In this document: piece after piece, positions 17,821 to 58,084 of the stretch
Layout of the letters: the number at the start of each line of letters is the position of its first letter
Position numbering within the stretch: position 1 is the first letter of the stretch
Assembly (NCBI GenBank): GCA_937920345.1
Contig: CALGVA010000031.1
Coordinates: 8,824 to 72,823, forward strand
DNA from: an uncultured Lachnospiraceae bacterium
GTDB taxonomy: Bacteria > Bacillota > Clostridia > Lachnospirales > Lachnospiraceae
DNA length: 64,000 bases
Reading direction: 5' to 3'
The notes under the pieces: model-generated
Seen by the model: the letters and a program-made list of their open reading frames with translations, nothing else
Told to the model about the DNA's origin: nothing
The model's database searches: none
Position numbers and translations under genes: made by a program

Positions 17821-17922
17821 CTTTCTGTTCCTCTCCTTGATTGCGCTTCGCTCAATCGCGAGCTTCGCTTCGCGAACCCGAATTCTCTCCATTGTTTGAT
17901 TAGACCAGCGTGAGTGGTTTTT

Positions 17923-26920: not shown

Positions 26921-27841
26921 CTACGCCAGCACATCCCCCACTCTGATCTGTCTCTCACTCTCATACCTGTCGATCAACAGCGAACCGTCCACCGTGCGCA
27001 CCACCGGTTTGCCGTCGAATATATCAATCACCTCACCCGGCGCATAAGCCGAGAAATCAATCATCTCATCGAACGGATGAGCTTCCCACACCGTCACCTG
27101 CTTCTCCCCGATCATGGCATATGCTCCCGGGAAAGGCGCCGCAACGCCGCGGATCAAATTGTAAATCTCCCTTGTTCTCGCATGAAAATCGATCTTCCCG
27201 TCTGCTGCCGTCCGCTTCTGATACCACGAATCATAATCCTTAGACTCTGTGCGGATTACAATATGATCCTCCTGATATGCCTGAAGCAGTCTGCGAATCA
27301 GATTCTTGGAACAGATCATATTCTTGTACTGCGCCGTCCGGATGTCGTCATGCGGCGTAATCGAAAACATCTCCGTCGCAAATACATTCGGGCTGTCCGC
27401 CTTCTCATCATACCTGAACATATTCAGATTAAATCTGGTATCCCCGAGAATAATCGACCAGTTGAGCGGTGACCTTCCCCGTCCGAAGGGCAGATACCCG
27501 CAGTTGCCATGGAATCCGTATATTCCGTACTGAAATGCATCCAGAACCGACGGCGGGATCAGTCTCTGCCATCCCATGGAGATGCCGATATCAAATTCGT
27601 TCTCCTGTATAAACTTCTGCGTTTTCTCATCTGTCAGAAAATAACTGTCCGCCTCATGCACAGGAATCCCGTATTGCTCCGTCAGAACCGACAGCCCCTT
27701 ATACCCTGACACCTGGTTCTTCTTCGTCACCTCCGGACTGATCGTGATTACCAGATCCACCGGGCAGATCTGCTCCTGTATGAAGTTCACAATGTTCTCC
27801 GAAGTGTCTTTTACCCCGAATACCACTACCTTGTATTTCAT
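26921..27841 (-). CDS. formyltransferase-family protein (candidate amino-sugar N-formyltransferase)
   Basis: ISMGWQRLIP...GFHGNCGYLPFGRGRSPLNWSIILG fits the Formyl_trans_N H-x-x-LP-x-x-RG block. GGGAGGAACAGG lies before the ATG at 27841. Confidence 0.65.
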   Translation of the reverse strand: MKYKVVVFGVKDTSENIVNFIQEQICPVDLVITISPEVTKKNQVSGYKGLSVLTEQYGIPVHEADSYFLTDEKTQKFIQENEFDIGISMGWQRLIPPSVLDAFQYGIYGFHGNCGYLPFGRGRSPLNWSIILGDTRFNLNMFRYDEKADSPNVFATEMFSITPHDDIRTAQYKNMICSKNLIRRLLQAYQEDHIVIRTESKDYDSWYQKRTAADGKIDFHARTREIYNLIRGVAAPFPGAYAMIGEKQVTVWEAHPFDEMIDFSAYAPGEVIDIFDGKPVVRTVDGSLLIDRYESERQIRVGDVLA

Positions 27842-27945
27842 CCTGTTCCTCCCGTATTCTTTAATACTGTCCAAGGACCTTTTTCATTTTTTCTATCCTT
27901 CCAGACCGGCACAAGTCCCGTGCTTGAAAATTCTGGTTTTCCGGC

Positions 27946-28878: not shown

Positions 28879-29856
28879 CTACGCAAGGTATTCCTTATAC
28901 CAGTCGATCGCCAGTGCGATTCCCCTCTCGAAATCAAACTCCGGATTATAGCCAAGCAGTTCCCGCGCCTTGCTGATATCCGCGTTGGAATCCCGCACGT
29001 CACCCTTTCGGGCAGGTCCGTAATGAGGCTCCACTTTTTTACCCAGCGCCTCGCAGAGATATTTGTAAATATCGTTCAGGAACAGTCTGCCGCCGGCGCC
29101 GATGTTATATGCCTGCCCCGCCGCATCGGAAGAAGCCTTGCAGGCGCGCAGATTGGCCTCAATCACATTATCGATATAGGTAAAATCTCTCGACTGCATA
29201 CCGTCTCCGTTAATGGTGGGCACTTCACCGTGGAGAAGCTGTTTCAGAAACTTCGGTATCACGGCGGCATACATGCCGTCCGGATCCTGTCTGCGTCCGA
29301 ATACATTAAAATACCGCAGTCCGTAGGTATCCAGCCCGTACAGTTCCTTATACAACCGTCCGTACTCCTCATCCACTTTCTTCGTCAGCGCATAGGGGGA
29401 GATCACATTGCCCTCCTGCCCCTCTTTCTTCGGGAGCGTAGTCGAATCACCATACACGGAAGAACTGGACGCGTAGACAAACTTCTTCACGCCGCACGTT
29501 CTCGCCGCCTCCATCATATTTAAGGTGCCGCGTATGTTGATCTCTTCATACAGAAGCGGCATCTCAATACTGCGCGGCACACTGCCCCAGGCCGCCTGAT
29601 TCAACACATAATCCACGCCGTCCATAGCCGCCTTACAGGTCTCCAGATCCCTGATGTCACCCTCGATAAAGGTAAATCTGTCATTCTTCGTGAGCGGCTC
29701 AATATTCTCATATTTTCCAGTAGAAAGATTGTCGAGGCAGCGCACGGTATACCCCATGTCGATCAACGCCTCACAGATATTGGAACCGATAAAACCTGCC
29801 CCGCCGCCTACCAGAAACACACTCTCTGCATCAAATTTTACATCACGATATCCCAT
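28879..29856 (-). CDS. NAD-dependent SDR epimerase, WbpP/TviC-like (UDP-HexNAc or UDP-HexNAcA 4-epimerase)
   Basis: GGAGFIGSNICEALIDMGY..LDNLSTGK, with the catalytic SPYALTK (Y-x3-K). GGAGGA lies 5 nt before the ATG at 29856. Confidence 0.75.
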   Translation of the reverse strand: MGYRDVKFDAESVFLVGGGAGFIGSNICEALIDMGYTVRCLDNLSTGKYENIEPLTKNDRFTFIEGDIRDLETCKAAMDGVDYVLNQAAWGSVPRSIEMPLLYEEINIRGTLNMMEAARTCGVKKFVYASSSSVYGDSTTLPKKEGQEGNVISPYALTKKVDEEYGRLYKELYGLDTYGLRYFNVFGRRQDPDGMYAAVIPKFLKQLLHGEVPTINGDGMQSRDFTYIDNVIEANLRACKASSDAAGQAYNIGAGGRLFLNDIYKYLCEALGKKVEPHYGPARKGDVRDSNADISKARELLGYNPEFDFERGIALAIDWYKEYLA

Positions 29857-29899
29857 TTTCTCCTCCATTCCGAAATCTTTATCATTATAACGCCCAAGA

Positions 29900-31255
29900 C
29901 TAAGAATCAGACTTGTGCCATTGCTCCCTGACTAACAGAAACAGACCCGTGTAGAAAATCGAAAATCCATAGATCATATACCGCGACAGGCACATGATCG
30001 TCATGGACGTGGCACAGACATTCGCCGCGATAAAGAGCAGCGCAACACCTGTCACAAATGCGGCATCTCTTCGCTTCCTTCCGCGCAGTACCTGCCACAC
30101 GGCAAGCCCGACCGCCATCCCGTAAAGAACCGCCGCCAACCAGTTGATCACAGGATGCACCACCGCAATGCTTCTGATAAATCCATGCACGCACAGCAGG
30201 ATATAGTCATATAACCATTGTCTCAAACACACCGGAAGAAGTCCGGCAATCATGCTTCCTGCCAGCTCATCTGACATACTGCTTTGCTGATAATAATCCA
30301 CCTCGCCGAGTCCAAAGAAATAAGCTGTCAGATTCGCTTCCAGCACCCGGAACTTCAGTTCGTCATGGCATCCTTCCAGATGCGCCGCCCGCTCTGCCAG
30401 GGTTCTGCCCCCGTATTTATAGTTCAGTTCTCCGGCATCCGCCTCCGCATAGAAAAGGTCAAAAAATTCCCGCTCGAGGCTGCCTGTTGCAAACACCTCT
30501 CCATCCTCCTCATCACAGGCATAGATCACGTTCGTCAGTGTATTGACCTGCGCATAGGTGTTTCCCATAAAATAACCCGTTACGCCGTAATTATACACGT
30601 GAATCGTCAGACTGCGCAGCCCGAATGTCAGCAAAACCGTTACTACGGGTATGAATAAGATTCTATATTTTTTGTGCGCCAGCATCTGCAGGCATACGAT
30701 CACCATCCACATCAGGATCGTAGTCATCATCTGTCCTCTGGTCATGGACAGCAGGAACGCGAGCAGCAGGCTTAAGACCGCATCCCGCCTGTGACGCTCA
30801 AACAGCATACGCAGCAGAAAATACAGGAAAAAGTGAAAGAGCGGAATGCACAGCGCCTCGCTCATCACCGAATTTTCCAGAAAAATGTGCAGTGCGGATA
30901 CATACCGCGTCATCAGATGCGGCACCAGATGCAGCAGAACCACCAGCAGTTCTTCCCACAACCGCAGGCCAAAATGCGCCGCAACGTACCCGGCAAACAG
31001 CCAGATCCCGACCGCAGTCAACACATTCTGCACTGCTGCGGCCACCGTCAGATATCCGTCACCGCATATTGTACGAAACAGAGCCAGAAACAGCGGGTAC
31101 AGCGGTTCCCGGTGTATATGCATCGTGATATACTGCTCGGAATCATTATAGACTCCCACCCCGCAGACTGCCAGCATCCCCAGAAAAAATATGAGCAGCC
31201 CTGAAAGTATGCACCCTGATTTAATTACTTGTGTTCTTTTCTCTACAGTCTCCAA
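29900..31255 (-). CDS. polytopic membrane protein, function unknown (candidate polymerase or GT-C)
   Basis: More than 10 hydrophobic helices, with YNDSEQY after TM1. It is wedged between the epimerase and dehydrogenase genes and overlaps the dehydrogenase gene by 13 nt. Confidence 0.4.
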   Translation of the reverse strand: METVEKRTQVIKSGCILSGLLIFFLGMLAVCGVGVYNDSEQYITMHIHREPLYPLFLALFRTICGDGYLTVAAAVQNVLTAVGIWLFAGYVAAHFGLRLWEELLVVLLHLVPHLMTRYVSALHIFLENSVMSEALCIPLFHFFLYFLLRMLFERHRRDAVLSLLLAFLLSMTRGQMMTTILMWMVIVCLQMLAHKKYRILFIPVVTVLLTFGLRSLTIHVYNYGVTGYFMGNTYAQVNTLTNVIYACDEEDGEVFATGSLEREFFDLFYAEADAGELNYKYGGRTLAERAAHLEGCHDELKFRVLEANLTAYFFGLGEVDYYQQSSMSDELAGSMIAGLLPVCLRQWLYDYILLCVHGFIRSIAVVHPVINWLAAVLYGMAVGLAVWQVLRGRKRRDAAFVTGVALLFIAANVCATSMTIMCLSRYMIYGFSIFYTGLFLLVREQWHKSDS

Positions 31256-32559
31256 TACAGATAATCCTCTGTCAGGTATTCTTTCCTGTCTAACAGTCCT
31301 TTAATATCCAGCAAAACCTTACGCTTATGTGACGGTGCATAGAATGCCGCGATCTGCTCCCTGTCAAGCTTCAGGAAATCGTCGTGCGCTACCGCGATGA
31401 TCACCGCGTCCATGCCCCTGACTTCTTCCATTGTCTGAAAAGTGATCCCGTACAGCCTTTTCGCCTCATCTGCATCCGCCGCAGGATCCACCACCATGGG
31501 AGTGATTCCGTATTCCCCCAGTTCTTTATAGATATCGATCACCTTCGTGTTTCTCGTATCGGGGCAGTTCTCCTTAAATGTAAAACCAAGAATCGCCACA
31601 CGGGCACGCTTGACCGGAATATCCGCCCTGATCAGGCTCTTTACGAGGCTTTCCGCTACATATTTACCCATATCATCATTAATGCGGCGGCCCGACAGGA
31701 TGATCTGCGAGTGGTATCCCAGTTCCTCTGCTTTATAGGTCAGATAATAAGGATCTACGCCGATACAGTGACCGCCTACAAGACCGGGCATGAATTTCAG
31801 GAAGTTCCACTTCGTCCCGGCGGCATCCAGTACTGCCTTCGTGTCGATATCCATCTTGTGAAAAATCATAGAAAGTTCATTCATAAACGCAATGTTGATA
31901 TCCCGCTGGCTGTTCTCAATCACCTTCGCAGCCTCCGCCACCTTGATGGATTCCGCACGGTACACGCCCGCCTCCACCACCAGCTCATATACTCTGGCTA
32001 TGGTATCTAACGTCTCCTCGTCCATGCCGGATACGATCTTCGTGATGGTTTCCAATCTGTGTACCTTATCCCCCGGATTGATCCGCTCCGGAGAATAGCC
32101 GATCTTGAAATCCACACCACACTTCAGTCCGGATTCCTCTTCCAGAATCGGCACGCAGATCTCCTCCGTGACACCGGGATATACCGTCGATTCAAATACC
32201 ACGACAGAACCTTTCATCAGGTTCTGTCCCAGAATGCGGCTGGCGCCCTCCACCGGTGTCAAATCCGGCGTGTGATCGTCATTGACCGGCGTCGGTACGG
32301 CTACGATATGAAACTTCGCCTCCCGCAGTTTCGCGGGATCAGCCGTAAATTCTACCTTCGTATTTCTAATCACCTCATCGCCCACTTCATTGGTCGGATC
32401 GATCCCGTTCTGATACAACTCGATCTTCTTCTCATTGAGGTCGAATCCCACCACGCCTATCTTTCTCGCAAAAGCGACGGCAATCGGCATACCTACATAA
32501 CCGAGTCCCACCAGAGATACTTTTTCTTCTCCCTTTACAATCTTTTCATATAAGTCCAT
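31243..32559 (-). CDS. nucleotide-sugar 6-dehydrogenase, WbpO/TviB/Cap5O-like
   Basis: Rossmann motif VSLVGLGYVGMPIAVAF and catalytic-Cys block GGHCIGVDPYYL. Confidence 0.8.
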   Translation of the reverse strand: MDLYEKIVKGEEKVSLVGLGYVGMPIAVAFARKIGVVGFDLNEKKIELYQNGIDPTNEVGDEVIRNTKVEFTADPAKLREAKFHIVAVPTPVNDDHTPDLTPVEGASRILGQNLMKGSVVVFESTVYPGVTEEICVPILEEESGLKCGVDFKIGYSPERINPGDKVHRLETITKIVSGMDEETLDTIARVYELVVEAGVYRAESIKVAEAAKVIENSQRDINIAFMNELSMIFHKMDIDTKAVLDAAGTKWNFLKFMPGLVGGHCIGVDPYYLTYKAEELGYHSQIILSGRRINDDMGKYVAESLVKSLIRADIPVKRARVAILGFTFKENCPDTRNTKVIDIYKELGEYGITPMVVDPAADADEAKRLYGITFQTMEEVRGMDAVIIAVAHDDFLKLDREQIAAFYAPSHKRKVLLDIKGLLDRKEYLTEDYLYWRL

Positions 32560-33652
32560 TTTTTTCCTCCACTCCGATAATGTTCCTTACCTCGTCCATA
32601 TATTCCCCCGTCACAAGCTTACGGTCGAATTCCCGTTCCATCTTCTCTCTGCCTGCCCGCCCCATCGCGGCACGCTCATCGACAGAAAGCGCCAGGAATT
32701 TCTTCATCGCCCCGATCAGCTCGTCCGCATGACCGGGCGTAAAACCGAAGCCGGTCCTGCCATCCTCGAAAGCCTCCAGACAGCCGCTGATATTCGAAGC
32801 GATCACCGGTCTTCCCGTCGCCGCACCCTCAATCAGCGCATTGGACATTCCTTCATGGAAAGAGGCCACCACAATCGCACTCGCCGCCGTCAGATAAGGG
32901 TGCACCTCTGTATGAAACCCGATCTGGCGCACAACGCCTTCCCGCTCCAGCGCATCCAGCATATCCTGATAATCTTCATCGCAGTACCCCATAATATCAA
33001 AGATAACCTTATCGCTATGTAACGCTCGCGCCGCCTCGATATACTCCAGAATACCCCGTTCCTTCATCACCCTGCCGACAAAGAGGAAATGCGTCTCATC
33101 GCCTGACGGATACGGCTCATACTTATGCCTGTCCAGATTTACACCGGAACCCATAACCATCCTCGTCTTCTTCGGCGTAATGCCAAACCTTTTAAAAATC
33201 CCTCTGTTTTCCTCATTCTGAAAGAAAACACATGCGGCACACTTAAGCCCTGTCCTGTACATGGTAACGATTACCTTCAGGAACATCCCCGTCCGGTCAA
33301 AGGCGCCGCCCAGTCCCGTGATCGTGGCGATATATGGAATCCTCCGTCTCGCGGCGGCAAACCCGCCGTATATATTCGGTTTGATCGTGTACGTCACCAC
33401 CAGATCGGGCCTCAGTTCCTTCATCAGCCTTTTGTACGCGCGGTACAGTTTCAGATCCTCCAGCGGATTCATGCCCCTGCGGTTGATTGCCGTCTTCACG
33501 ATCCGGCACCCTTCTGCCGCCAGTTCCTTCTCTTTCACATCGTCCGGCATACTGACATACACCTCATGCTCCGCCAGCATCGCCTGCACGAACTCATTGC
33601 GGAAATCATACAGTCCGCCGGAAGAATTTGTCAAAACCAGTATTCTGCCCAT
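32546..33652 (-). CDS. GT4-family glycosyltransferase (position analogous to PglA)
   Basis: ASFHEGMSNALIEGAATGRPVIASNISGCLEAFEDGRTGF. Confidence 0.75.
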   Translation of the reverse strand: MGRILVLTNSSGGLYDFRNEFVQAMLAEHEVYVSMPDDVKEKELAAEGCRIVKTAINRRGMNPLEDLKLYRAYKRLMKELRPDLVVTYTIKPNIYGGFAAARRRIPYIATITGLGGAFDRTGMFLKVIVTMYRTGLKCAACVFFQNEENRGIFKRFGITPKKTRMVMGSGVNLDRHKYEPYPSGDETHFLFVGRVMKERGILEYIEAARALHSDKVIFDIMGYCDEDYQDMLDALEREGVVRQIGFHTEVHPYLTAASAIVVASFHEGMSNALIEGAATGRPVIASNISGCLEAFEDGRTGFGFTPGHADELIGAMKKFLALSVDERAAMGRAGREKMEREFDRKLVTGEYMDEVRNIIGVEEKNGLI

Positions 33653-33676
33653 CGTTTTCTCCCATTCCTGTACAGG

Positions 33677-34660
33677 TTACACTACAATATCTTCTCCGTT
33701 CATATCGCGGACCACTATCTCATTATACTTCATCATGCAGATATTTTCCAAATAATTCCCGATATCGACCGGATTCTCCTGCCCTTCCAGATTGCGGACC
33801 ACCGACGATGCCATATTGACGCCGCAGGCATACGCGTGCGGATAGCCGCCGCCAAAGCGGGGATTCACCTCAGAAATATAATAGACCCCGCCGATTTCAA
33901 AGATATCAATATCAATCATCCCCCGGAAACCGCACGACTCCACGAAACTTCGAATCAGTGCAAACAGGTTCTCATCTTTAACAGACACGGATTTATCTGT
34001 CTCTCCGGCGCGCATCCTGATTTTCTTCTTGACAAAAATCGACGTGCACTTACCGGTTATCATGTCAATATACACGTCCGCACCGTATTCCTGTCCGTCC
34101 ATGTACTCCTGTATCATCAGATCATCGTAGAGATCATACAGCACCTCGATCTCCTTACGCCCCTCTACTTTGTTAATATGCAGGCTGGCACTGCCGCACA
34201 CAGGCTTCACAAACACCGGATAGGAAATCTCTCCCGTCTCCACCGCCTGATAGAAACATTCCTTATCAGAATAGCATCTGCCGGTCGGAATCTGCATCCT
34301 GCCAAGCAGCTCATACATCCTGTATTTATTCAAACAGGTTTCCACCAGATCATAATCCGATACAACCGGCGTCGTGCCGACCGCCAGAAATTTGTCCCGT
34401 TCTTTCGCCAACATACTCAGTTCCGGATCAATCAGTGAGAATACACCCGTTATTTTTTCTTTTTTACAGATATCCAGAATCACTTCCATATAATCCGGCG
34501 CCGTGATGCGCGGCACCAGATAGAAAGCATCCGCGTCGTAGACAGCCGGTGCCAGATTACTGCAGTCTGTAGCGATCACCCTGCCTCTGCCGGCTAATTC
34601 TTTTTTAAAATACTGCACGATCTTATTCCGCGTGCCCGCGCTCAATATCAATATATTCAA
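33677..34660 (-). CDS. ATP-grasp ligase
   Basis: ILILSAGTRNKIVQYFKKEL (pre-ATP-grasp), YPVFVKPVCGSAS, IQEYMDGQEYGADVY, ISEVNPRFGGGYPHAY. The start overlaps the PGT stop by 4 nt. Confidence 0.7.
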   Translation of the reverse strand: MNILILSAGTRNKIVQYFKKELAGRGRVIATDCSNLAPAVYDADAFYLVPRITAPDYMEVILDICKKEKITGVFSLIDPELSMLAKERDKFLAVGTTPVVSDYDLVETCLNKYRMYELLGRMQIPTGRCYSDKECFYQAVETGEISYPVFVKPVCGSASLHINKVEGRKEIEVLYDLYDDLMIQEYMDGQEYGADVYIDMITGKCTSIFVKKKIRMRAGETDKSVSVKDENLFALIRSFVESCGFRGMIDIDIFEIGGVYYISEVNPRFGGGYPHAYACGVNMASSVVRNLEGQENPVDIGNYLENICMMKYNEIVVRDMNGEDIVV

Positions 34661-35307
34661 TCTGACACCTGTGCCTTTCTCTGTTCTTCCATTCTCTTCC
34701 TGCGGATCTCCGCGAAGTTGCCCTCCACCGCATTGGTGTCCTCTGCCACCTCATCGGTATGTCCCAGCACCGTCTTCACCGTCATCCACAGTACCTTCAC
34801 ATCCATCCCGAAAGTAAGATGCTCCACATATTCCACATCCCTGGCAAGCCGCCTGTCCCAGTCGATATAATTGCGTCCGCTGACCTGCGCCAAGCCCGTC
34901 AGGCCGGGACGCACGCTGTGCCGGAGTTTCTCACGCTCACTGTAATACGGCAGATACGACACCAGAAGCGGTCTCGGCCCTATGATGCTCATGTCTCCTT
35001 TTAAGATATTAAACAGTTCCGGCAATTCGTCCAGACTCGTCCCTCTCAGGAACCTGCCGAACTTCGTCAGCCGCACCGCATCCGGCAGCAGATGACCGTT
35101 CTCGTCTTTTTCATCCGTCATCGTACGGAATTTACACAGCGTAAAGATCTTTTCATTCCTGCCCGGACGCTCCTGCCGAAACAGAACCGGGCTTCCCAGC
35201 TTCACGCGCACCAGAATACAGAGTACCAGCAGGATCGGGCTGAGCACTACAATACCGCACAGTGACAACAGAAAATCTAAAGCTCGCTTGATATATTTCT
35301 TATACAT
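34657..35307 (-). CDS. small monotopic phosphoglycosyl transferase, PglC/WcfS type (second initiating PGT)
   Basis: KRALDFLLSLCGIVVLSPILL, GSPVLFRQERPGRNEKIFTLCKFRTM, DELPELFNILKGDMSIIGPRPL. Confidence 0.85.
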   Translation of the reverse strand: MYKKYIKRALDFLLSLCGIVVLSPILLVLCILVRVKLGSPVLFRQERPGRNEKIFTLCKFRTMTDEKDENGHLLPDAVRLTKFGRFLRGTSLDELPELFNILKGDMSIIGPRPLLVSYLPYYSEREKLRHSVRPGLTGLAQVSGRNYIDWDRRLARDVEYVEHLTFGMDVKVLWMTVKTVLGHTDEVAEDTNAVEGNFAEIRRKRMEEQRKAQVSD

Positions 35308-35342
35308 ATACGATTCCTCTTTATCTCACGTCCCGGTACAAA

Positions 35343-36494
35343 TCATAATAATCCGTCTCCGAAGCACCCGCGCACTGTGCGGATGATCAGTTCCATATCT
35401 TCCTCTGTGTTCTTGATATCGCTGGGCAGGCAGAGCCCTCTGTGGAACACATCTGTTCCCACGCTGCTGCCGTCCTCATGATGGGTGATAAAATCATATT
35501 TTTCAAAAACAGGCTGCAGGTGCATCGGCTTCCAGATCGGTCTGCTCTCAATGTTCTCTTCCGCCAGCGCATCCATTACCATATCAGGTGTTACATTACA
35601 CCCGTTCTCAATCGTCATGCAGGACAGCCAGCAGTTTGCATCACCGTCTTCGTTCAATGGGTTCATGGTAATCTGCGGCAGATCCGCGAAAGCTTCCCGA
35701 TACTGCCTGTAGATCGCCTGTTTCTTCGCCTTATGCTCCTCTATATGGAGAAGCTGCCCTCTGCCGATTCCCGCCGTGACATTGCTCATGCGGTAATTGT
35801 AACCGATCTGAGAATGCTGATAATGTCTGGCCGGATCTCTCGCCTGTGTAGCCAGAAATGTCGCCTGTTTTGTCGCTTCCTCGTCGGCCGACACCAGCAT
35901 GCCGCCGCCGGAAGTCGTAATAATCTTATTGCCGTTAAAAGAATAGATTCCGTATTTGCCGAAAGTGCCCGTATGGCGTCCTTTATACGTACTGCTTAAA
36001 GATTCCGCCGCATCCTCGATCATCGGTACATGATGCTCTTCACAGATCGCCATGATCTCATCCAGTTTCGCAGGTGTACCGTAGAGGTGCACACAGATTA
36101 CCGCCTTTGGATGCGGATATTTCTCAAATGCCCTGCGCAGTGCCTCCGGAGACATGTTCCAGGTATCCGGTTCCGCATCGATAAACACGGGTGTCGCAGC
36201 CTCGTACGCAATCGGATTACAGGTTGCAGAAAATGTCAGATCTGACACAAACACAATATCCCCGGGACACACCCCGGCCAGCTTAAGCGCCAGATGGATC
36301 GCCGCCGTTCCTGCGCTTAACGCCGCCGCATGACCGCACCCTGTATACGCTGCAATCTCCTCTTCAAAAGAACTGACATTAGGTCCAAGCGGCGCAATCC
36401 AGTTGGTATCAAACGCTTCCTGCACATATTTCTGTTCCTCGCCATGCATAGTCGGACACGATAAGTATATCCTTTTTTTCTCCATAACAGACAC
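35343..36494 (-). CDS. DegT/DnrJ/EryC1-family sugar aminotransferase (PglE/EpsN-like)
   Basis: LSCPTMHGEEQKYVQEAFDTNWIAPLGPNV, GDIVFVSDLTFSAT, and the PLP-lysine block YSFNGNKIITTSGGG. Confidence 0.85.
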   Translation of the reverse strand: MSVMEKKRIYLSCPTMHGEEQKYVQEAFDTNWIAPLGPNVSSFEEEIAAYTGCGHAAALSAGTAAIHLALKLAGVCPGDIVFVSDLTFSATCNPIAYEAATPVFIDAEPDTWNMSPEALRRAFEKYPHPKAVICVHLYGTPAKLDEIMAICEEHHVPMIEDAAESLSSTYKGRHTGTFGKYGIYSFNGNKIITTSGGGMLVSADEEATKQATFLATQARDPARHYQHSQIGYNYRMSNVTAGIGRGQLLHIEEHKAKKQAIYRQYREAFADLPQITMNPLNEDGDANCWLSCMTIENGCNVTPDMVMDALAEENIESRPIWKPMHLQPVFEKYDFITHHEDGSSVGTDVFHRGLCLPSDIKNTEEDMELIIRTVRGCFGDGLL

Positions 36495-36567
36495 CCTTCC
36501 TTTCTGTTCCTGCCAAACCTCTCCGCTCTGTATGCCAGACCCTGATCAGCCGCATCCATCTATCGCA

Positions 36568-38460
36568 TTACATCGTATCTTTCAGTACCTCATCGTCCTG
36601 ACTGTGATAAGTCGGAACGATCCTCTTGATCAACGGTCTGATATCCGAATTTTCGACCTGACACTCATCCTTCAGTTCTTTTAACTGGGTAAAAAATTCA
36701 TGCTCATCGAGTTCGATCGGTTTCCCGATATGAATCATCCTGTTTGCGGTGTCCTTCATGCCCTCTTCATCCATGAGCAGCTCTTCATACAGTTTCTCGC
36801 CGGGGCGGAGTCCCGTAAACTTGATCTTAATATCCTCTCCCACACGGTAGCCCGACAGTTTGATCAGATTATGTGCCAGATCGAGTATTTTCACGGGTTC
36901 CCCCATATCCAGCACGAAAATCTCGCCGCCCTTCGCATAGGCGCCGGCCTGCAGGACAAGCGAAACCGCCTCTGGAATCGTCATAAAATAACGTATGATA
37001 TCCGGGTGGGTCACGGTAACCGGACCGCCCGCCGCGATCTGCTTGCGGAACAGCGGAATCACGCTGCCGTTACTGCCCAGCACATTGCCGAACCGGACCG
37101 CCACGAACTCCGTCTCATAATGCTTGTCAAAAGTCTGTATAATCATCTCGCAGATCCGTTTGCTGGCTCCCATGATGTTCGTCGGGTTTACCGCCTTGTC
37201 GGTGGAAATCATGACAAATCGCTGTACACCGCTCATGGCGGCTGCCTGCGCGGTCTTAAAGGTACCGAACACGTTATTCTTGATCGCCTCGGTAGGACTG
37301 TCCTCCATAAGCGGTACATGCTTATGCGCCGCGGCATGGTATACGATATCCGGTCGGTATTTTGAGAAAATATAATTCATGCGGTTGGTATTGCGCACGG
37401 ATGCAATCAGTACCACCAGATCCAGCTCCGGATATTTCGCCTTCAGTTCCTGCTGTACATCATAAACCGTATTCTCATAGATATCTACGATAATAAGCCG
37501 TTTCGGTCTGTGTATCGCGATCTGACGACACAGCTCACTGCCGATGGAGCCGCCGCCGCCGGTGACCAGCACCGCCTTGCCCTGCACATAGCCGAGAATG
37601 GAATCCAGATCCACGCTGATCGGATCTCTGCCCAGCAGATCCTCCACCTCCACGTCACGCAGTTTGCTGACATTAACTTCGCCGTTTACAAGCTGATACA
37701 TGCCCGGCAGGGAACGCAGCTTACAGTTTGTATCTTTACAGATTTCCAGAATGTTCTTAATCTCCGCCCTGCTGGCTGACGGCATCGCCACGATAATCTC
37801 ATCCACGTCATAGATATCGGCACACTCCACGATCTTGTCACGGCCGCCGACCACCTTGATGCCCTGGATAAATCTGCCCCATTTCCCCTTATCATCATCA
37901 ATAATGCACTTGATGACCATGGTCGAGAAATTGCTGTTGACAATCTCCTTAATGATCAGATTGGCAGCCTCCCCCGCGCCGATCACCATCACGGCAATCC
38001 GGTTCTTCTTATTCTGCTGCTTATGTTTCAGCCCGCGGAAGAAACGGTAGGAGAAACGGCTGCAGAAAATACATGTGATCAGCAGAAATAAATAAAAGAA
38101 ATAGTAACTCTTGGGTACCGCTCTGGACGAAGTTCTGAAAAACTGCAGGCAGACGCCATTTACAAGTGTAGACAGCGCACAGGATACCACGATGTTCTGC
38201 AATTCCGTCTCTCCTGCAAAAGCCCACAGACTGCTATAGAGACGAAATAGATAGAAGATTCCCAGCGTCATCACAATATTGAGCGGCATCACATGCTCGA
38301 TCGGGCTCATGAAATGCTCGGGTATCTCATCCACCCGGAACTCATAGCGCATCACGATCGCCAGGTAGCTCGACAGAACCACACTGATAATATCATATAC
38401 GATCAGGCAGGTTCTCCGGTAAAACAGCTTTACATTAAAAGGTTTTCTCTCTTTTTTCAT
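36568..38460 (-). CDS. membrane-anchored UDP-HexNAc 4,6-dehydratase, CapD/PglF type
   Basis: N-terminal TM helices, two Rossmann motifs (VMVIGAGEAA and VTGGGGSIGSEL) and ISTDKAVNPTNIMGASKRICE. The track start is TTG. The ATG at 38460 has AGGA upstream and removes the overlap with the upstream gene. Confidence 0.8.
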   Translation of the reverse strand: MKKERKPFNVKLFYRRTCLIVYDIISVVLSSYLAIVMRYEFRVDEIPEHFMSPIEHVMPLNIVMTLGIFYLFRLYSSLWAFAGETELQNIVVSCALSTLVNGVCLQFFRTSSRAVPKSYYFFYLFLLITCIFCSRFSYRFFRGLKHKQQNKKNRIAVMVIGAGEAANLIIKEIVNSNFSTMVIKCIIDDDKGKWGRFIQGIKVVGGRDKIVECADIYDVDEIIVAMPSASRAEIKNILEICKDTNCKLRSLPGMYQLVNGEVNVSKLRDVEVEDLLGRDPISVDLDSILGYVQGKAVLVTGGGGSIGSELCRQIAIHRPKRLIIVDIYENTVYDVQQELKAKYPELDLVVLIASVRNTNRMNYIFSKYRPDIVYHAAAHKHVPLMEDSPTEAIKNNVFGTFKTAQAAAMSGVQRFVMISTDKAVNPTNIMGASKRICEMIIQTFDKHYETEFVAVRFGNVLGSNGSVIPLFRKQIAAGGPVTVTHPDIIRYFMTIPEAVSLVLQAGAYAKGGEIFVLDMGEPVKILDLAHNLIKLSGYRVGEDIKIKFTGLRPGEKLYEELLMDEEGMKDTANRMIHIGKPIELDEHEFFTQLKELKDECQVENSDIRPLIKRIVPTYHSQDDEVLKDTM

Positions 38461-38470
38461 AGTTCTTTTC

Positions 38471-41056
38471 CTACGCCGCTTCTTTCCTGTCAATCAGGAG
38501 CGGTGCCATTGTCAACAGTAAACAGAATGCAATGGAACTGCATGGATGGAAGATCCATTCCGTCAGCCCCGCTACCGCGAAGAGAATCAGCAGGGCAAGC
38601 GGCAGCGCCGCACATATCCTGTCCTCTTTGCGTCTATGATAGTACACTGCCGCCTGCACCAGAGTGCCGACGCCCAGCAGAATAAATATCACGCCCACAT
38701 AGATGCCGTGATCATAAGCGACCTGCAGATAGATATTGTGCGCATGGACGTTATAATGACCGTTCGGCTCCATAATACCCATATCGTCATGACCGATCCT
38801 GTTCAGATTATTATAATACAGTCTGAAAATTTTCAGTCTTCCATTTGTATAGGAATCTTCTTCCTCCTGCTCCACGCCATCCTGATTCTCCGCCTGCACC
38901 TGCGTGTCCGCAGATGCGATCTCTATCACGCCTTCCTCCACAGCAATCCCGCTGTCTGTCGGCATATTCCTCACACCTGCGTCTGTATTTCCTGCGGAAG
39001 CAAGAAGAATTTCTTCGTCCTTTGCCCTCACAAAACCGTCCGTGCACTCCTCTCCTGCATCCGTAAGCATGTCCATCGCCTGCAGGCTCTCCATCTCCGG
39101 TATACCCAGCACTTTCATCTGAAACACCTGTATGAACCGCTGAATCGTAATATAGTATTCGGAATCCATATCCCTGCCGTGTACGATCTCGACAGGCAGT
39201 TCCTCGATCTCATGCAGCTCCGGTCTGGCAATCGCAGCAGGAACTGCTCTCTGCGCCGTAAAGACCGCCGGAAAACAGACAAAGACCGCAAGCAGCATCA
39301 TTGCGCCGCCTCGCAGAATACTGCGCCATCTGCTCTTCATGGAGAAGCATGTTACAGGAAGCATGACCACCGCCATGACCATAACTGCCAGATACCCTGT
39401 TCTCGACAGCGTCAGCAGCAGATACACCACCGACACGCCAAACAGAATCAGTTCCTTATAAACAGCAGCAAGTCTCTGTTCTCTTCTATATGCATCTAAG
39501 AACTTCACAAATGCCGCGCACACTACAAGCGCAAGATATACCGCAGACATCGTCACCGTATGGAAAATAAACGGATATCTGTAATATTGAAAGAACATAT
39601 ACGGTCTGTGCAGCAGACAGTACAGCACCATCACGCTAAAGTGCAGCAGGATGCCGTTACAGATATTGCGGAGCAGAGACGCCTTGCCTTCCCACGCCGC
39701 CATGTTCACATAGAACAGCACAAAAGCACATACCAGATAGACAGGCCATCCCCGTGTATTACGATACAACATAATCGCCGCAAAAAACACCGCCACCAGA
39801 ATACCATACGCAGCGCTTATGCCCTTAACCTGCCTCCGCACCAGAACCCGTATCGTGCCAATCACTACCAGTCCCGCAAGAATCCCCGCCCAGACGGTGA
39901 GTTTCACTGTAAGGATCTCCATCTCCTCCGGATCCGTAAGCACCGCCATCGCGCCGTGATAATAACGCTGTGCAAAGAAAGCCGCCGCAATCAGATACAC
40001 CAGATTAATAATATTAAAAATGTCCTTTCGCTTATAAGTCACAATGACCGCCAGCGCAAAGAAAATCAGCTGCTGCCTGTATGCTACGGTATGATGGATC
40101 TCATACAGACCGTTCATATAATTACAGCATGCCCAGAGTGCGCCTGCAATAAAGACAGACTGCAGTCCGTTTCCCATATTTGTTTTCAGAACGTCAAATA
40201 TCGTTCTGTCCGAAGCGCAGCCTGTACGGTCATGGTTGACCGCATAGAGCAGCAGCGCTGCTGTCACCAGGATACTCCCCTCGTAAAAAAGAATCGACAC
40301 GGTATTGGTCGTAAGCAGCCTGCAGGGCCACACCGCCACACAGGCAGCGGCCGCCGCAATCACAATGAGCGGATTACACACTGCTTTGACCGTCTGTTCC
40401 ACCGTAACCAGTACATTCTTCTCCGGCCGCCTGTCATAATATTTCCCCGTCAGGTAAGTAACGGCAGCCGCAAACAACACAAACAGGGCAGCACACACCA
40501 GTGTCTTGCCCTTGCGAAGCGGTACCTCGTACTCATACGCGGCAATCATACAGCGCTGCGTGTCTTCCACATTGCCGTAGTACAGTGTACCGTTGTAAAT
40601 ATTATCTGTCTGCGCCGTATATTGATACGCAACCCGGAACGGTTCTTCGATCCCCTGCAGCAGGAAATAATATTCCCTTCCTACCTGCGTATCGATATTG
40701 ACCTGCACCGTGCAGTATCCCGGAATATGCTTCATATCTTTTGTGTCGATCACCTGCTGCATGATCACCTGCATGGCTGCATCATATAATACGAAGTTAA
40801 ATTCCTCTCCTGCCGTTCCCTCATGGATATAAATATCAATATTTTTCAGTCTGTCATACTGGGCGATGAACATCTGCTGTACCACATAACCTGATGTGAT
40901 CTCTTCAGATTCCATGAGCGTCTCCGGAAGTGTCCTGCCGTTGGCAGTTACCGTTTCCTTAATCAGACGAACCGGCCACAGCGCAAGCAGCGCACACAGC
41001 ACGATGATCCAGAGCGTTTCACAGATCGCCTCTCTTCTAGTGATTATTCTGTTCAT
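38471..41056 (-). CDS. 861-aa Wzy_C/O-antigen-ligase-family membrane protein (WaaL/PglL-like ligase or polymerase)
   Basis: Many TM helices, LSRTGYLAVMVM, and a C-terminal HN-x9-G block (HNIYLQVAYDHG) as in WaaL-type ligases. It also carries a roughly 150-aa soluble insertion with an acidic tract, ENQDGVEQEEEDS. Confidence 0.6.
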   Translation of the reverse strand: MNRIITRREAICETLWIIVLCALLALWPVRLIKETVTANGRTLPETLMESEEITSGYVVQQMFIAQYDRLKNIDIYIHEGTAGEEFNFVLYDAAMQVIMQQVIDTKDMKHIPGYCTVQVNIDTQVGREYYFLLQGIEEPFRVAYQYTAQTDNIYNGTLYYGNVEDTQRCMIAAYEYEVPLRKGKTLVCAALFVLFAAAVTYLTGKYYDRRPEKNVLVTVEQTVKAVCNPLIVIAAAAACVAVWPCRLLTTNTVSILFYEGSILVTAALLLYAVNHDRTGCASDRTIFDVLKTNMGNGLQSVFIAGALWACCNYMNGLYEIHHTVAYRQQLIFFALAVIVTYKRKDIFNIINLVYLIAAAFFAQRYYHGAMAVLTDPEEMEILTVKLTVWAGILAGLVVIGTIRVLVRRQVKGISAAYGILVAVFFAAIMLYRNTRGWPVYLVCAFVLFYVNMAAWEGKASLLRNICNGILLHFSVMVLYCLLHRPYMFFQYYRYPFIFHTVTMSAVYLALVVCAAFVKFLDAYRREQRLAAVYKELILFGVSVVYLLLTLSRTGYLAVMVMAVVMLPVTCFSMKSRWRSILRGGAMMLLAVFVCFPAVFTAQRAVPAAIARPELHEIEELPVEIVHGRDMDSEYYITIQRFIQVFQMKVLGIPEMESLQAMDMLTDAGEECTDGFVRAKDEEILLASAGNTDAGVRNMPTDSGIAVEEGVIEIASADTQVQAENQDGVEQEEEDSYTNGRLKIFRLYYNNLNRIGHDDMGIMEPNGHYNVHAHNIYLQVAYDHGIYVGVIFILLGVGTLVQAAVYYHRRKEDRICAALPLALLILFAVAGLTEWIFHPCSSIAFCLLLTMAPLLIDRKEAA

Positions 41057-43972: not shown

Positions 43973-44584
43973 TTATTGTCCAGTCTCCGCTTCATACATC
44001 GCCATAAACCGCTCCCTGTCAGTCTCCATAAAAAGCACTTCCCGCCTCCCCTGCTTCGTCATGACAGTCTCTTTCCTGTCCGTCATAACAAAACCGGCAT
44101 GCTCATAACTCTTCCGGGCCGCCGTATTGCCCGCCAGAAAGCGCAGATAGATCTTCCGCAGAGGCAGCTTCGTAAAAGCATAGTAAAGCGCCTCCCTCGC
44201 CGCCGCCGTACCGTAACCGTGTCCGAGCGCCTCCTCTTCCCCGATAAAAATTCCGTACTCGGCAGCGCCCTGATCCCTGTCAATATCGCGGAAATAAACG
44301 CTGCCGATCTCCCGGCCGTCGGGCAGGCAGATGATGAACTGTACTACATGCCCCTTCTCCACCTGGTTCCGAATCCATGACAGATGTCCCTCTCTTGTAA
44401 AAGGCTCCTGATATATAAAGTTTGTCTGCACAAAATCCTTATTGCGCCACGCGACGATTTTGTCCGTATCTTCCTCTGTCATCGGGCGCAGGTCAACCGT
44501 ATTCTGCATCGTTTTGTCTGTAAACGCTCTCCTTCTTCCGCTTTCTGATCTATCACAAGGCATTTCACACTGCTGCCGCAGCAT
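43973..44584 (-). CDS. GNAT-family N-acetyltransferase (PseH/WecD-like role possible)
   Basis: LRPMTEEDTDKIVAWRN...EYGIFIGEEEALGHGYGTAAAREALYYAF is a GNAT acetyl-CoA block. The start is uncertain because no candidate ATG has a good SD. Confidence 0.6.
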   Translation of the reverse strand: MLRQQCEMPCDRSESGRRRAFTDKTMQNTVDLRPMTEEDTDKIVAWRNKDFVQTNFIYQEPFTREGHLSWIRNQVEKGHVVQFIICLPDGREIGSVYFRDIDRDQGAAEYGIFIGEEEALGHGYGTAAAREALYYAFTKLPLRKIYLRFLAGNTAARKSYEHAGFVMTDRKETVMTKQGRREVLFMETDRERFMAMYEAETGQ

Positions 44585-44595
44585 ATATGCATCGA

Positions 44596-46662: not shown

Positions 46663-46685
46663 TCAGGCAGTACCTTTTTCGTCTC

Positions 46686-53155: not shown

Positions 53156-53214
53156 AACCGCTGCGTGCCCTTTCCGAATCCCAAGCGTCTGTCTCAAATC
53201 CAAAATATCATTAT

Positions 53215-53244
53215 ATTTTAGCACAGGAGTGGAAGAAATTGCAA
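53215..53244 (-). promoter_or_regulatory. candidate promoter for the ABC/GtrA/... operon
   Basis: The minus strand reads TTGCAA-18 nt-TAAAAT, preceded by TGC (extended -10). Confidence 0.4.
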
Positions 53245-53324: not shown

Positions 53325-53858
53325 ATGACCAGAGTAAGATTTTATGAGAATGCAGCTGATAAGCTGCTTAAATTCGCCGTGATTATATCCAGATATCAGA
53401 ATAAATATGTCTTCTGCAAGCACAGAGACCGGGATACCTGGGAGGTGCCCGGCGGTCACCGTGAGCCCGGAGAAGACATTACAGATACAGCCAGACGGGA
53501 ATTGTATGAGGAGACAGGCGCTCTGGAATACGACTTATCGCCCGTCTGCGTCTATTCCGTTACCGCGCCTGATAATTTCGACGGCGCCGAGACCTTCGGG
53601 ATGCTGTACTTCGCCGATATTAAGCGATTTGAAGCGGAATTACACAGTGAGATCGAGAAGATCACGCTGACGGAGTGTCTGCCGGAACGTCTGACTTATC
53701 CCGATATCCAGCCCGTCTTAATGAAAGAAGCGGCACGGCGCAGGCATTTATCGGATGTCCGCGCAATCAGATCATCTCATTCTGTCTGTGAACCTCCGGG
53801 GGTTCATATTTGTCCAGAAAGTCCTCTCCTAAGAAAAGCACTTCCTCCGCAAATTTGA
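53325..53858 (+). CDS. NUDIX hydrolase
   Basis: Nudix box GGHREPGEDITDTARRELYEETG. This is the only plus-strand gene in the locus. Its last 92 nt overlap the convergent gene. Confidence 0.8.
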   Translation: MTRVRFYENAADKLLKFAVIISRYQNKYVFCKHRDRDTWEVPGGHREPGEDITDTARRELYEETGALEYDLSPVCVYSVTAPDNFDGAETFGMLYFADIKRFEAELHSEIEKITLTECLPERLTYPDIQPVLMKEAARRRHLSDVRAIRSSHSVCEPPGVHICPESPLLRKALPPQI

Positions 53859-56087: not shown

Positions 56088-56198
56088 TTCGTCACCGTTT
56101 CTTTCCGGAATATTTTCATAAGGATTCCGATACCCAAAAGTATATATCCGAATCTTTCCCGGCAGATTATACCTTTCGTCTGCAACACACTTTATAAT

Positions 56199-57251: not shown

Positions 57252-57253
57252 AA

Positions 57254-57988: not shown

Positions 57989-58084
57989 AGTTTTCTCCAT
58001 TTCTGCGCTGCTTTTGTCTCAACTATGTTGAGACGTCGCATTAAACGAGTTTGTGGCAAGCAACGCGCAGACACAAATCTCGCG

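Follow-up and report, generated by a model that had tools for sequence, protein, structure and literature searches.

A PglC-linked ATP-grasp ligase as the likely N-acylating enzyme of a Lachnospiraceae priming-sugar module

The stretch of DNA analysed here, referred to as the window, comprises 64,000 nucleotides from an uncultured Lachnospiraceae bacterium of the gut. It contains a polysaccharide locus with a five-gene priming-sugar module, all genes of which lie on the minus strand. In the order of transcription, the module encodes a PglF-type 4,6-dehydratase, a PglE-type aminotransferase, a PglC-type phosphoglycosyltransferase (PGT), an ATP-grasp ligase and a GT4 glycosyltransferase. The five genes are found at the coordinates given in an earlier note on this DNA, and their matches in Pfam, NCBIfam and the PDB agree with the gene order described there.

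36568..38493, minus strand: PglF/CapD-type membrane-anchored UDP-GlcNAc 4,6-dehydratase (Pfam Polysacc_synt_2, 410 bits, and an N-terminal CoA_binding_3 domain)
35343..36494, minus strand: PglE-type DegT-family aminotransferase (Pfam DegT, 320 bits)
34657..35307, minus strand: small monotopic PglC-type PGT of 216 aa (Pfam Bac_transf, 208 bits)
33677..34660, minus strand: ATP-grasp ligase of 327 aa with a TTG start, proposed UDP-4-amino-sugar N-acyl ligase (PylC-like_N and ATP-grasp_3)
32546..33652, minus strand: GT4 glycosyltransferase (Pfam Glyco_trans_1_4, Glycos_transf_1 and Glyco_trans_4_2)

The longest reading frame of the dehydratase gene encodes 641 aa from a TTG start; gene callers predict a protein of 630 aa starting at position 38460. 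The best solved structures for the first three enzymes come from the Campylobacter PglF-PglE-PglD-PglC pathway and are C. jejuni PglF (5BJU, 316 bits), C. jejuni PglE (1O61/4ZTC, 296 bits) and C. concisus PglC (8G1N, 225 bits), respectively. The aminotransferase also matches the NCBIfam LegC family, its best match there, with 377 bits, which is below the cutoff of 420, and its product may have either the gluco or the galacto configuration at C4. The ATP-grasp ligase matches NCBIfam NF009406 with 497 bits (cutoff 271) and retains all of the family-invariant residues K112, K152, Q184, N266 and R268. It aligns over the full length with PDB entry 2PN1 from Exiguobacterium sp. 255-15 (321 bits in a single-sequence search, 460 bits in a profile search), and both NF009406 and 2PN1 belong to the same protein family as the window enzyme. 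The entry 2PN1 is a structural-genomics deposition without assigned function or ligand, and its name, "carbamoylphosphate synthase large subunit", is misleading. The corresponding Exiguobacterium gene lies in a Wzy/Wzz/PglF-type polysaccharide locus.

The PGT and ATP-grasp genes are translationally coupled. The overlap of 4 nt between the ATP-grasp start and the PGT stop that the earlier note had described is present, and its sequence is TTGA, not ATGA: the PGT gene ends with TCA GAT TGA and the ATP-grasp gene begins with TTG AAT ATA TTG. A Shine-Dalgarno-like AGGTG is located 5 nt upstream of this TTG start, and the resulting N-terminus, MNILILSAG, agrees with the family consensus.

As the note had also stated, a PglD/WbpD-type acetyltransferase is absent. 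The best hit of a tblastn search of the window with a PglD-like domain had an E value of 0.98, and a scan of the window for hexapeptide repeats revealed no PglD/WbpD-type reading frame. The PglD-like probe likewise found no match in 80 related genomes and in 29 metagenomic loci with full flanks. The module thus differs from the Campylobacter pathway to di-N-acetylbacillosamine (diNAcBac) in that it lacks the left-handed beta-helix protein PglD. The ATP-grasp ligase takes the position of the absent enzyme, and diNAcBac is therefore not the expected product.

Several genes outside the module bear on its interpretation.

31243..32559, minus strand: TviB/WbpO-like UDP-GlcNAc 6-dehydrogenase (NCBIfam TviB, 492 bits, below the cutoff of 592)
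28879..29868, minus strand: TviC/WbpP-like UDP-GlcNAcA 4-epimerase (NCBIfam TviC, 284 bits, below the cutoff; Pfam Epimerase, 203 bits)
26921..27874, minus strand: ArnA-N-like sugar N-formyltransferase (Pfam Formyl_trans_N and Formyl_trans_C)
43973..44584, minus strand: PseH/WecD-like GNAT (Pfam Acetyltransf_3, 83 bits)

The TviB-like dehydrogenase exceeds the cutoff of the NCBIfam NDP-sugar dehydrogenase subfamily (391 bits, cutoff 190), and the formyltransferase stays below the cutoff of PRK06988 (127 bits). The window also encodes two Asn-synthase-type amidotransferases outside the module.

The conservation of the module was assessed in two sets, the 80 species-level related genomes and the 29 diverse metagenomic loci. 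The earlier note had suggested looking for co-occurrence of the ATP-grasp subfamily with PglC-type PGTs. The PGT gene lies immediately upstream of the ATP-grasp gene in 77 of the 80 genomes and nearby in 27 of the 29 diverse loci. This arrangement is not due to chance. Among the close relatives, DegT is found in 73 loci, PglF in 70, and the GT4 gene follows the ATP-grasp gene directly in 73. DegT is kept in 24 of the diverse loci, and the linkage of the ATP-grasp gene to PGT and DegT holds down to about 30% identity. The order aminotransferase, PGT and ATP-grasp is preserved even in distant annotated cases, those of Clostridium sediminicola, Natroniella, a Priestia plasmid and Segatella copri, and an E. 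coli plasmid carries a dTDP-viosamine-type version. One related locus (L057) has PGT, ATP-grasp and GT4 genes and neither PglF nor PglE within 10 kb, which counts against the pathway proposed below.

In some relatives the two coupled genes are fused. The proteins P0420 and P0421 are single 538-aa PGT::ATP-grasp polypeptides, the residues 2-211 of which share 74% identity with the window PGT and the residues 212-537 73-74% identity with the window ATP-grasp ligase. The P0420 locus is collinear with the window: genes for DUF6020, a large membrane protein, PglF, DegT, the fusion protein and GT4 are followed by those for a UDP-sugar dehydrogenase, a membrane protein, an epimerase and a formyltransferase. 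The PGT and ATP-grasp frames, which overlap by TTGA in the window, are continuous in this locus. PGT::ATP-grasp fusions form at least 17 clusters, and in another syntenic locus the ATP-grasp domain is fused to a PglE-like aminotransferase (P0445). Fusion to a dehydrogenase was never found.

We consider it likely that the module produces the lipid-linked sugar that primes a surface polysaccharide in this member of the Lachnospiraceae, with the ATP-grasp ligase acting as an acylating enzyme in the place of PglD. The first reaction would be the conversion of UDP-GlcNAc into UDP-2-acetamido-2,6-dideoxy-4-hexulose by the PglF-type dehydratase. The PglE-type aminotransferase would then produce UDP-2-acetamido-4-amino-2,4,6-trideoxyhexose, the C4 amine of which is most likely N-acylated by the ATP-grasp ligase. 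In this third step, the counterpart of the acetyl-CoA-dependent PglD reaction of the diNAcBac pathway, the ligase would form an acyl-phosphate from a carboxylic acid, with ATP converted into ADP and Pi, and ligate it to the amine. The small PGT would transfer the N-acylated sugar 1-phosphate onto undecaprenyl phosphate. The second sugar is probably added by the GT4 enzyme and would probably be a GalNAcA derivative supplied by the TviB/TviC-like enzymes. We infer jointly that the 4-amino sugar is the acceptor, that it reacts at the UDP-sugar level and that the general acyl-phosphate mechanism of ATP-grasp enzymes applies. Since an ATP-dependent ligase replaces the usual acetyltransferase, the N-acyl group of the priming sugar is probably an unusual one. 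No gene for donor synthesis adjoins the ATP-grasp gene in the window or in about half of the related loci, so a common metabolite is the probable donor; candidates include 2-oxoglutarate, other keto or hydroxy acids and proteinogenic amino acids. 2-Oxoglutarate is the co-product of the preceding transamination and also the acid used by the Pyl enzyme of Bacillus cereus. The N-acylation of the 4-amino group by an ATP-grasp enzyme in the place of PglD had been put forward in the earlier note; the fusions, the linkage to PGT and DegT and two precedents described below support it.

Instead, the GNAT might acetylate the C4 amine, or the formyltransferase might formylate it, as the note had also considered. 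The product would be an ordinary diNAcBac-like or 4-formamido sugar, and the ATP-grasp ligase would have another task, for example lengthening an acyl or aminoacyl side chain or acting on the Und-PP-linked glycan. GNATs such as PseH and WecD acetylate 4-amino-6-deoxy sugars, and PseH is the best NCBIfam match of the window GNAT (72 bits, cutoff 93). The presence of both enzymes elsewhere in the locus, which makes them conceivable acylating enzymes for the C4 amine, counts against the ATP-grasp reading. The GNAT gene, however, is located 9 kb from the module, is found in only 23 of the 80 related loci and adjoins a confidently assigned gene for WecE, the dTDP-Fuc4N aminotransferase (46686-47813, 630 bits, cutoff 375). 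The GNAT therefore makes a weak candidate donor and most likely belongs to the separate dTDP-Fuc4N pathway. The formyltransferase, present in 51 of the 80 close loci, co-occurs with the uronic-acid genes of the TviB/TviC type and adjoins a polysaccharide deacetylase in one relative (L090), which speaks against it as the N-acyl donor; it might still cap an aminoacyl group. Some relatives have a GNAT, PglD-like or formyltransferase gene next to the ATP-grasp gene or fused with it, but such enzymes more plausibly cap the free amine of an amino acid once it is ligated than compete for the C4 amine, and about half of the diverse loci contain no such enzyme. Acylation by the GNAT or the formyltransferase is thus unlikely.

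It is also quite improbable that the ATP-grasp ligase activates GalNAcA or GlcNAcA from the nearby TviB/TviC-like enzymes at its C6 carboxylate and ligates an amino acid or amine to it, with the 4-amino sugar left free or acetylated or formylated by another enzyme. A precedent is the ATP-grasp amidoligase domain of Campylobacter Cj1438, reported to amidate glucuronate (PMC11800379). The genes of the TviB-like dehydrogenase and the TviC-like epimerase, 1-5 kb downstream, are found in 65 and 68 of the 80 close relatives, respectively; this tight linkage, which implies that a sugar carboxylate is available in the window, counts against acylation of the C4 amine. So do the Orn/Arg-type PLP decarboxylases adjacent or fused to some family members, which could supply amine donors for ligation to a carboxylate. 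Outside the close clade, however, a UDP-sugar dehydrogenase is found in only 6 of the 29 loci, whereas PGT and DegT persist. Four species (L056, L063, L069 and L075) retain the module as PglF-DegT-PGT-PALP-ATP-grasp-GT4 followed by L-FucNAc genes; no sugar dehydrogenase was found in these loci, and hence no sugar carboxylate would be available. The E. coli plasmid, Clostridium, Natroniella, L093 and Priestia contexts also lack uronic-acid genes, the fusion partners include PGT and aminotransferase and never a dehydrogenase, and the two Asn-synthase-type amidotransferases already explain uronamide formation.

A third reading, in which PglF, PglE and the ATP-grasp ligase feed a nonulosonic-acid (legionaminic-type) pathway through the genes for NeuB and a CMP-transferase, which lie 20 kb upstream, and not the PGT, is very hard to sustain: the LegC match of the aminotransferase and the NeuB, cytidylyltransferase and GT52 genes of the window favor it, but a NeuC-type hydrolysing 2-epimerase was not found in the window, the ATP-grasp ligase is coupled to the PGT and fused to it in orthologues, and the NeuB module carries its own, unrelated ATP-grasp gene.

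Acylation of a 4-amino sugar by an ATP-grasp enzyme is not a new design and is known from Bacillus cereus and Neisseria. In B. cereus ATCC 14579, Pyl is reported to ligate 2-oxoglutarate to UDP-4-amino-FucNAc, giving UDP-Yelosamine, that is UDP-FucNAc-4N-(2)-oxoglutarate (Hwang et al., J Biol Chem 2014). Both systems combine the product of a UDP-GlcNAc 4,6-dehydratase, a C4 aminotransferase and an ATP-grasp enzyme that ligates an acid to the 4-amino group (proposed for the window), with a small monotopic PGT alongside, in a Gram-positive EPS locus without a PglD-type acetyltransferase. The likeness is one of pathway design; the window organism belongs to the Lachnospiraceae, not to Bacillus, and Pat produces the galacto configuration at C4. 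Because no B. cereus protein is among the best 120 homologues of 2PN1, a Bacillales member of the family, Pyl may belong to a different ATP-grasp subfamily.

PglB2 of Neisseria meningitidis is described as a PGT::ATP-grasp protein that makes the 4-glyceramido sugar GATDH (Chamot-Rooke et al., PNAS 2007; PMC11130364, PMC6959607). Its ATP-grasp domain stands where PglB has an acetyltransferase domain and is coupled to a PglC-type PGT, as is the ATP-grasp ligase of the window. PglB2 yields a reducing-end 2-acetamido-2,4,6-trideoxyhexose with a 4-N-acyl (glyceramido) substituent, and a 4-N-acylated sugar is proposed for the window as well. This likeness, too, is one of design. PglB2 is one polypeptide of protein O-glycosylation, whereas the window has two overlapping genes in a polysaccharide locus, with the orthologues at 74% identity fused like PglB2. 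A more distant subfamily of the ATP-grasp family (about 30% identity) is regularly linked to HAD phosphatases; one may speculate that it is the closer match to phosphoglycerate/glycerate-type chemistry.

An analysis of ATP-grasp and small-PGT co-occurrence was in part already published in 2024 by the Imperiali laboratory (PNAS 2024, PMC11626204). In their SSN cluster 24 of small PGTs, ATP-grasp and UDP-sugar-modifying genes are conserved nearby, and an ATP-grasp-acylated UDP-amino sugar was predicted there as the substrate of these PGTs. The window resembles this cluster in its neighbourhood, an ATP-grasp gene beside a small PGT. The PGT-ATP-grasp module described here would thus add a Lachnospiraceae example to the ATP-grasp acylation design known from B. 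cereus and Neisseria.

Five minus-strand genes make up the module in which the earlier note had placed an ATP-grasp ligase at the position of the bacillosamine-pathway N-acetyltransferase.

Genes of the module, with coordinates, strand and best matches
38460/38493..36568, minus strand: PglF/CapD-type dehydratase, 630/641 aa; best PDB match C. jejuni PglF (5BJU, 316 bits)
36494..35343, minus strand: DegT aminotransferase; best PDB match PglE (1O61/4ZTC, 296 bits)
35307..34657, minus strand: Bac_transf phosphoglycosyltransferase (PGT), 216 aa; best PDB match PglC (8G1N, 225 bits)
34660..33677, minus strand: ATP-grasp protein, 327 aa; PylC-like_N and ATP-grasp_3 domains; NF009406
33652..32546, minus strand: GT4 glycosyltransferase

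This gene order was confirmed as first described. The family assignments are strong, and the bacillosamine enzymes of Campylobacter are the best solved-structure matches of the dehydratase, the aminotransferase and the PGT. The PGT gene ends with ...TCA GAT TGA, and the ATP-grasp gene starts with TTG AAT ATA TTG..., with an AGGTG motif located 5 nt upstream. The reading of both genes at this junction gives an overlap of 4 nt, TTGA, exactly as claimed. No PglD-type hexapeptide acetyltransferase was found by tblastn (best E = 0.98) or by a scan of the ORFs for hexapeptide repeats, so that the absence noted earlier for the module holds for the whole window. The window thus contains the PglF-, PglE- and PglC-type enzymes of the Campylobacter diNAcBac pathway but lacks the PglD-type one. 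The ATP-grasp protein and its surrounding gene order occur again in GCA_948497335.1, a MAG from mouse gut, as well as on independent metagenomic contigs, and all close relatives are Lachnospiraceae. Cultured carriers are Lachnospiraceae bacterium CE91-St56 (AP025576.1), with an ATP-grasp of 67% identity, and Butyrivibrio proteoclasticus P6B7 (64%).

The product of the ATP-grasp gene matches the NCBIfam model NF009406 (PRK12767, "carbamoyl phosphate synthase-like") over residues 1–319 of 327 with 497 bits against a cutoff of 271, and stays under every cutoff of the sister sub-models NF009402–NF009405. In Pfam it shows PylC-like_N (139 bits) and ATP-grasp_3. The residues K112, K152, Q184, N266 and R268, which are invariant in 25 diverse family members and are presumed to bind ATP and Mg, are all retained; judged from its sequence, the protein is consistent with an active enzyme. 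The family is large, with 462 clusters at the 50% level reaching E <= 1e-30. Single-sequence and profile searches of the solved structures returned no characterised close relative, and the only close structure, 2PN1, is a structural-genomics entry without functional annotation. All genomic contexts of the family that were examined are glycan loci. The names "carbamoylphosphate synthase large subunit" (2PN1) and "carbamoyl phosphate synthase-like protein" (NF009402–NF009406) are misleading.

The functional link between the PGT and the ATP-grasp protein is indicated by gene fusions. P0420 and P0421 are single proteins of 538 aa, in which the N-terminal 210 residues share 74% identity with the window PGT and the C-terminal 326 residues share 73–74% identity with the window ATP-grasp. 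The gene order of the P0420 locus matches that of the window (DUF6020, PglF, DegT, fusion, GT4, dehydrogenase, membrane protein, epimerase, formyltransferase), and its DNA runs on in one unbroken reading frame at the site of the window's TTGA overlap. Because these orthologues are fused, the window pair is predicted to work like the fused form. At least 17 clusters contain PGT::ATP-grasp fusions. In P0445, from another syntenic locus, the ATP-grasp is fused with a PglE-like aminotransferase; elsewhere it is joined to a PglD-like acetyltransferase, to GNATs or to an Orn/Arg-type decarboxylase.

The earlier note had proposed a co-occurrence analysis of this ATP-grasp subfamily with PglC-type PGTs, and two samples of related loci now support the linkage. 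The first consists of the closest 80 loci, all from Clostridia and taken at species level, with ATP-grasp proteins 61–90% identical to the window protein. Here the ATP-grasp gene is adjoined by a PGT in 77/80 genomes, and the locus contains an aminotransferase in 73/80, a dehydratase in 70/80 and a dehydrogenase in 65/80. The second consists of 80 metagenomic loci (L097–L176; 45–82% identity), 29 of which have at least 4 kb of flank on each side. Within 6 kb, these 29 loci encode a PGT in 27 cases, a DegT aminotransferase in 24 and a UDP-sugar dehydrogenase in only six. A PglD-type gene is absent from all 80 closest loci and all 29 full-flank loci.

The dehydrogenase counts bear on a serious rival explanation, the amidation of a sugar carboxylate by the ATP-grasp in the manner of the Campylobacter uronate amidoligase Cj1438. 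The uronic-acid genes TviB and TviC adjoin the module, and the presence of a dehydrogenase in 65 of the closest 80 loci agrees with such a role; that clade therefore cannot tell the amino-sugar from the uronate hypothesis. The linkage is, however, not conserved in the diverse loci, and a dehydrogenase is missing from the contexts of the related loci L056, L063, L069, L075, L091, L092, L093, L094 and L095. The first four of these carry PglF-DegT-PGT-PALP-ATPgrasp-GT4 followed by FnlA/B/C-type L-FucNAc genes, PALP being a PLP enzyme of the D-Cys-desulfhydrase/ACC-deaminase family. The order is PglF-DegT-PGT-ATPgrasp-GT4 in L093, PGT-ATPgrasp-DegT in Clostridium sediminicola, PGT-formyltransferase-PALP-ATPgrasp-DegT in Natroniella and aminotransferase-PGT-ATPgrasp-HAD on a Priestia plasmid. 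The individually inspected Segatella copri context agrees with the amino-sugar/PGT linkage. The dTDP-viosamine-type locus of an E. coli IncR plasmid (RmlB-RmlA-Wzx-DegT-GNAT-PALP-ATPgrasp-GT) has an amino sugar but neither a uronic acid nor a PGT. On the basis of the synteny across the diverse loci, uronate amidation was down-weighted. The fusions, the synteny and the discordant loci of the close clade link the ATP-grasp with the amino-sugar/PGT steps rather than with uronic acids.

The replacement of PglD by an ATP-grasp enzyme acylating the 4-amino sugar, as suggested in the earlier note, is thus supported by fusions and synteny, and we consider a role as N-acyl ligase in the PglD position to be likely. 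We propose that the dehydratase and the aminotransferase would produce UDP-2-acetamido-4-amino-2,4,6-trideoxyhexose. The ATP-grasp would activate a carboxylic acid as acyl-phosphate and ligate it onto the C4 amine. The coupled small PGT would then place the N-acyl sugar phosphate on undecaprenyl phosphate, where the GT4 would extend it. Neither the window nor 15 of the 29 diverse loci contain a donor-synthesis gene beside the ATP-grasp gene, which points to a common metabolite as the acyl donor. The GNAT and the formyltransferase, put forward previously as alternative acyl donors, are weak candidates. For the distant GNAT, WecE is a more natural partner than the PglE-like enzyme.

Some relatives of the ATP-grasp gene are accompanied by accessory genes, which offer tentative leads to the acyl donor. 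A PALP gene directly adjoins it in 7/29 full-flank loci and in 26/80 diverse loci with any flank. PALP genes (TIGR01275) lie directly upstream in L069 (9017–9973, Lachnospiraceae), L092 (6032–6988, Natroniella) and L095 (6095–6997, the E. coli IncR plasmid), and the proteins from these three unrelated settings share 38–47% identity. Characterised members of the D-Cys-desulfhydrase/ACC-deaminase family release alpha-keto acids, and PALP presumably supplies the acid donor. No published explanation of the recurrent PALP/ATP-grasp pairing was found in the literature. Neighbouring GNAT, PglD-like or formyltransferase genes would be in keeping with ligation of an amino acid whose free amine is then capped. 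An Orn/DAP/Arg-type PLP decarboxylase adjoins the ATP-grasp in 3/29 full-flank loci and in L086 (3923–6102, Bacillus sp. JJ1532), and is fused with it in the 737-aa protein P0154; it may either make an amine donor or decarboxylate the ligated amino acid. Members of a subfamily sharing about 30% identity with the window ATP-grasp regularly occur with a HAD-family hydrolase (L094, 6992–8649; L096, 6992–9719; L089, 7001–10097), namely on the Priestia plasmid, in Segatella copri and in a locus with a PGT::ATP-grasp fusion. The Priestia protein, the one member of this subfamily scanned, has NF009405 as its nearest sub-model. The HAD linkage could mean that a phosphorylated acid is ligated and then dephosphorylated, a possible route to glyceramido sugars.

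The module is embedded in a very large glycan super-locus. Directly downstream of it are genes for a TviB/WbpO-like UDP-GlcNAc 6-dehydrogenase, a polytopic membrane protein, a TviC/WbpP-like 4-epimerase and a GT10-like protein, together with an ArnA-N-like formyltransferase, three further GT4s and an amidotransferase of the Asn-synthase type. Two Asn-synthase-type glutamine amidotransferases (15937–17892 and 20401–22338, minus strand) occur together with the TviB/TviC pair and the formyltransferase. In P. aeruginosa O6, the WbpO/WbpP/WbpS chemistry yields amidated and N-formylated GalNAcA, which this gene set recalls. In the related locus L090, a polysaccharide deacetylase adjoins the formyltransferase. 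Upstream of the module are two large polytopic membrane proteins (one DUF6020), a GT2, a PseH/WecD-like GNAT, WecE and an acyltransferase_3. WecE, confidently identified as a dTDP-4-amino-4,6-dideoxygalactose transaminase (630 bits; cutoff 375), is encoded in the region 43973–47813 (minus strand) with the GNAT two genes away, which implies a separate dTDP-Fuc4NAc-type branch in the super-locus; RmlA and RmlB were absent from the window ORFs scanned.

A second, unrelated ATP-grasp (54873–56087, minus strand; ATP-grasp_4 and LAL_C2, L-amino-acid-ligase type) is flanked by a GT52 sialyltransferase-like gene and by NeuB and a CMP-sugar cytidylyltransferase. This region (53767–58000, minus strand) looks like a nonulosonic-acid module with possible aminoacyl decoration, and the window yielded no NeuC-type 2-epimerase. 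A nonulosonic-acid role of the module ATP-grasp was rejected, as no NeuC-type gene was found and this ATP-grasp is coupled to a PGT. The window also encodes a further PGT, large and of the WbaP type, and two fused TMD-NBD ABC exporters (4651–6063, 11908–13809 and 51398–53224, all on the minus strand). The co-directional array of about 60 kb therefore contains no fewer than two or three independent lines of glycan assembly. On the plus strand, the GC skew is negative throughout (about -0.2 in each 2-kb interval of 1–64000), and essentially every long ORF is on the minus strand. This fits a leading-strand location of the whole array in a Bacillota chromosome.

This design is already known from two model systems. 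In B. cereus ATCC 14579, the aminotransferase Pat and the ATP-grasp Pyl lead to UDP-Yelosamine. By gene content, the window shares with the Pyl system a UDP-GlcNAc 4,6-dehydratase, a C4 aminotransferase, a small PGT and the lack of a PglD-type acetyltransferase. Pyl is encoded in the cluster BC5263–BC5279, next to the small PGT Q814Z7. The published Pdeg primers map to Bc3750, outside the Pat/Pyl cluster. No B. cereus protein is among the 120 best homologues of 2PN1, a Bacillales family member, which hints that Pyl may belong to another PRK12767 sub-model. Among the matches listed for 2PN1 and for a PGT::ATP-grasp fusion profile, none bore a B. cereus or Neisseria name. In Neisseria, the bifunctional ATP-grasp/PGT PglB2 yields the 4-glyceramido sugar GATDH instead of diNAcBac (PMC11130364, PMC6959607). 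PglB2 is one polypeptide, whereas the window pair consists of two overlapping ORFs and does not read as a single polypeptide. In 2024, the Imperiali laboratory reported an ATP-grasp gene conserved around the small PGTs of SSN cluster 24, which were predicted by the authors to use an acylated sugar (PMC11626204). That survey is in effect the co-occurrence analysis proposed in the earlier note. The enzyme logic was already known (2007, 2014), and there is no new system or principle here.

Which PGT initiates glycan assembly depends on the reducing-end sugar, and this sugar is often strongly antigenic as well. If the proposed role is correct, many mouse, ruminant and human gut Lachnospiraceae would prime surface polysaccharide with an N-acylated, rather than N-acetylated, 2,4-diamino-2,4,6-trideoxyhexose. 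A concrete, testable annotation would be available for a widespread family mislabelled "carbamoyl phosphate synthase-like", and substrates would be indicated for assigning the specificity of small PGTs. Yelosamine/GATDH-type chemistry would then occur beyond its two model organisms, in much of the gut microbiota. We regard it as a tentative and rather unlikely proposition that the NF009406-type ATP-grasp of gut Lachnospiraceae ligates an acid other than 2-oxoglutarate and glycerate, and that PRK12767 is a modular "acyl-swap" toolkit. On that proposition, exchangeable neighbours could vary the N-acyl group that 4-amino-6-deoxy sugars carry in many phyla; these neighbours would be PALP, GNAT/PglD-like capping acetyltransferases, Orn-type decarboxylases, CapK-like adenylating enzymes and HAD phosphatases. 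Should the acid indeed be neither of the two, abundant gut commensals would carry an undescribed N-acyl-bacillosamine derivative at the reducing end of their glycans.
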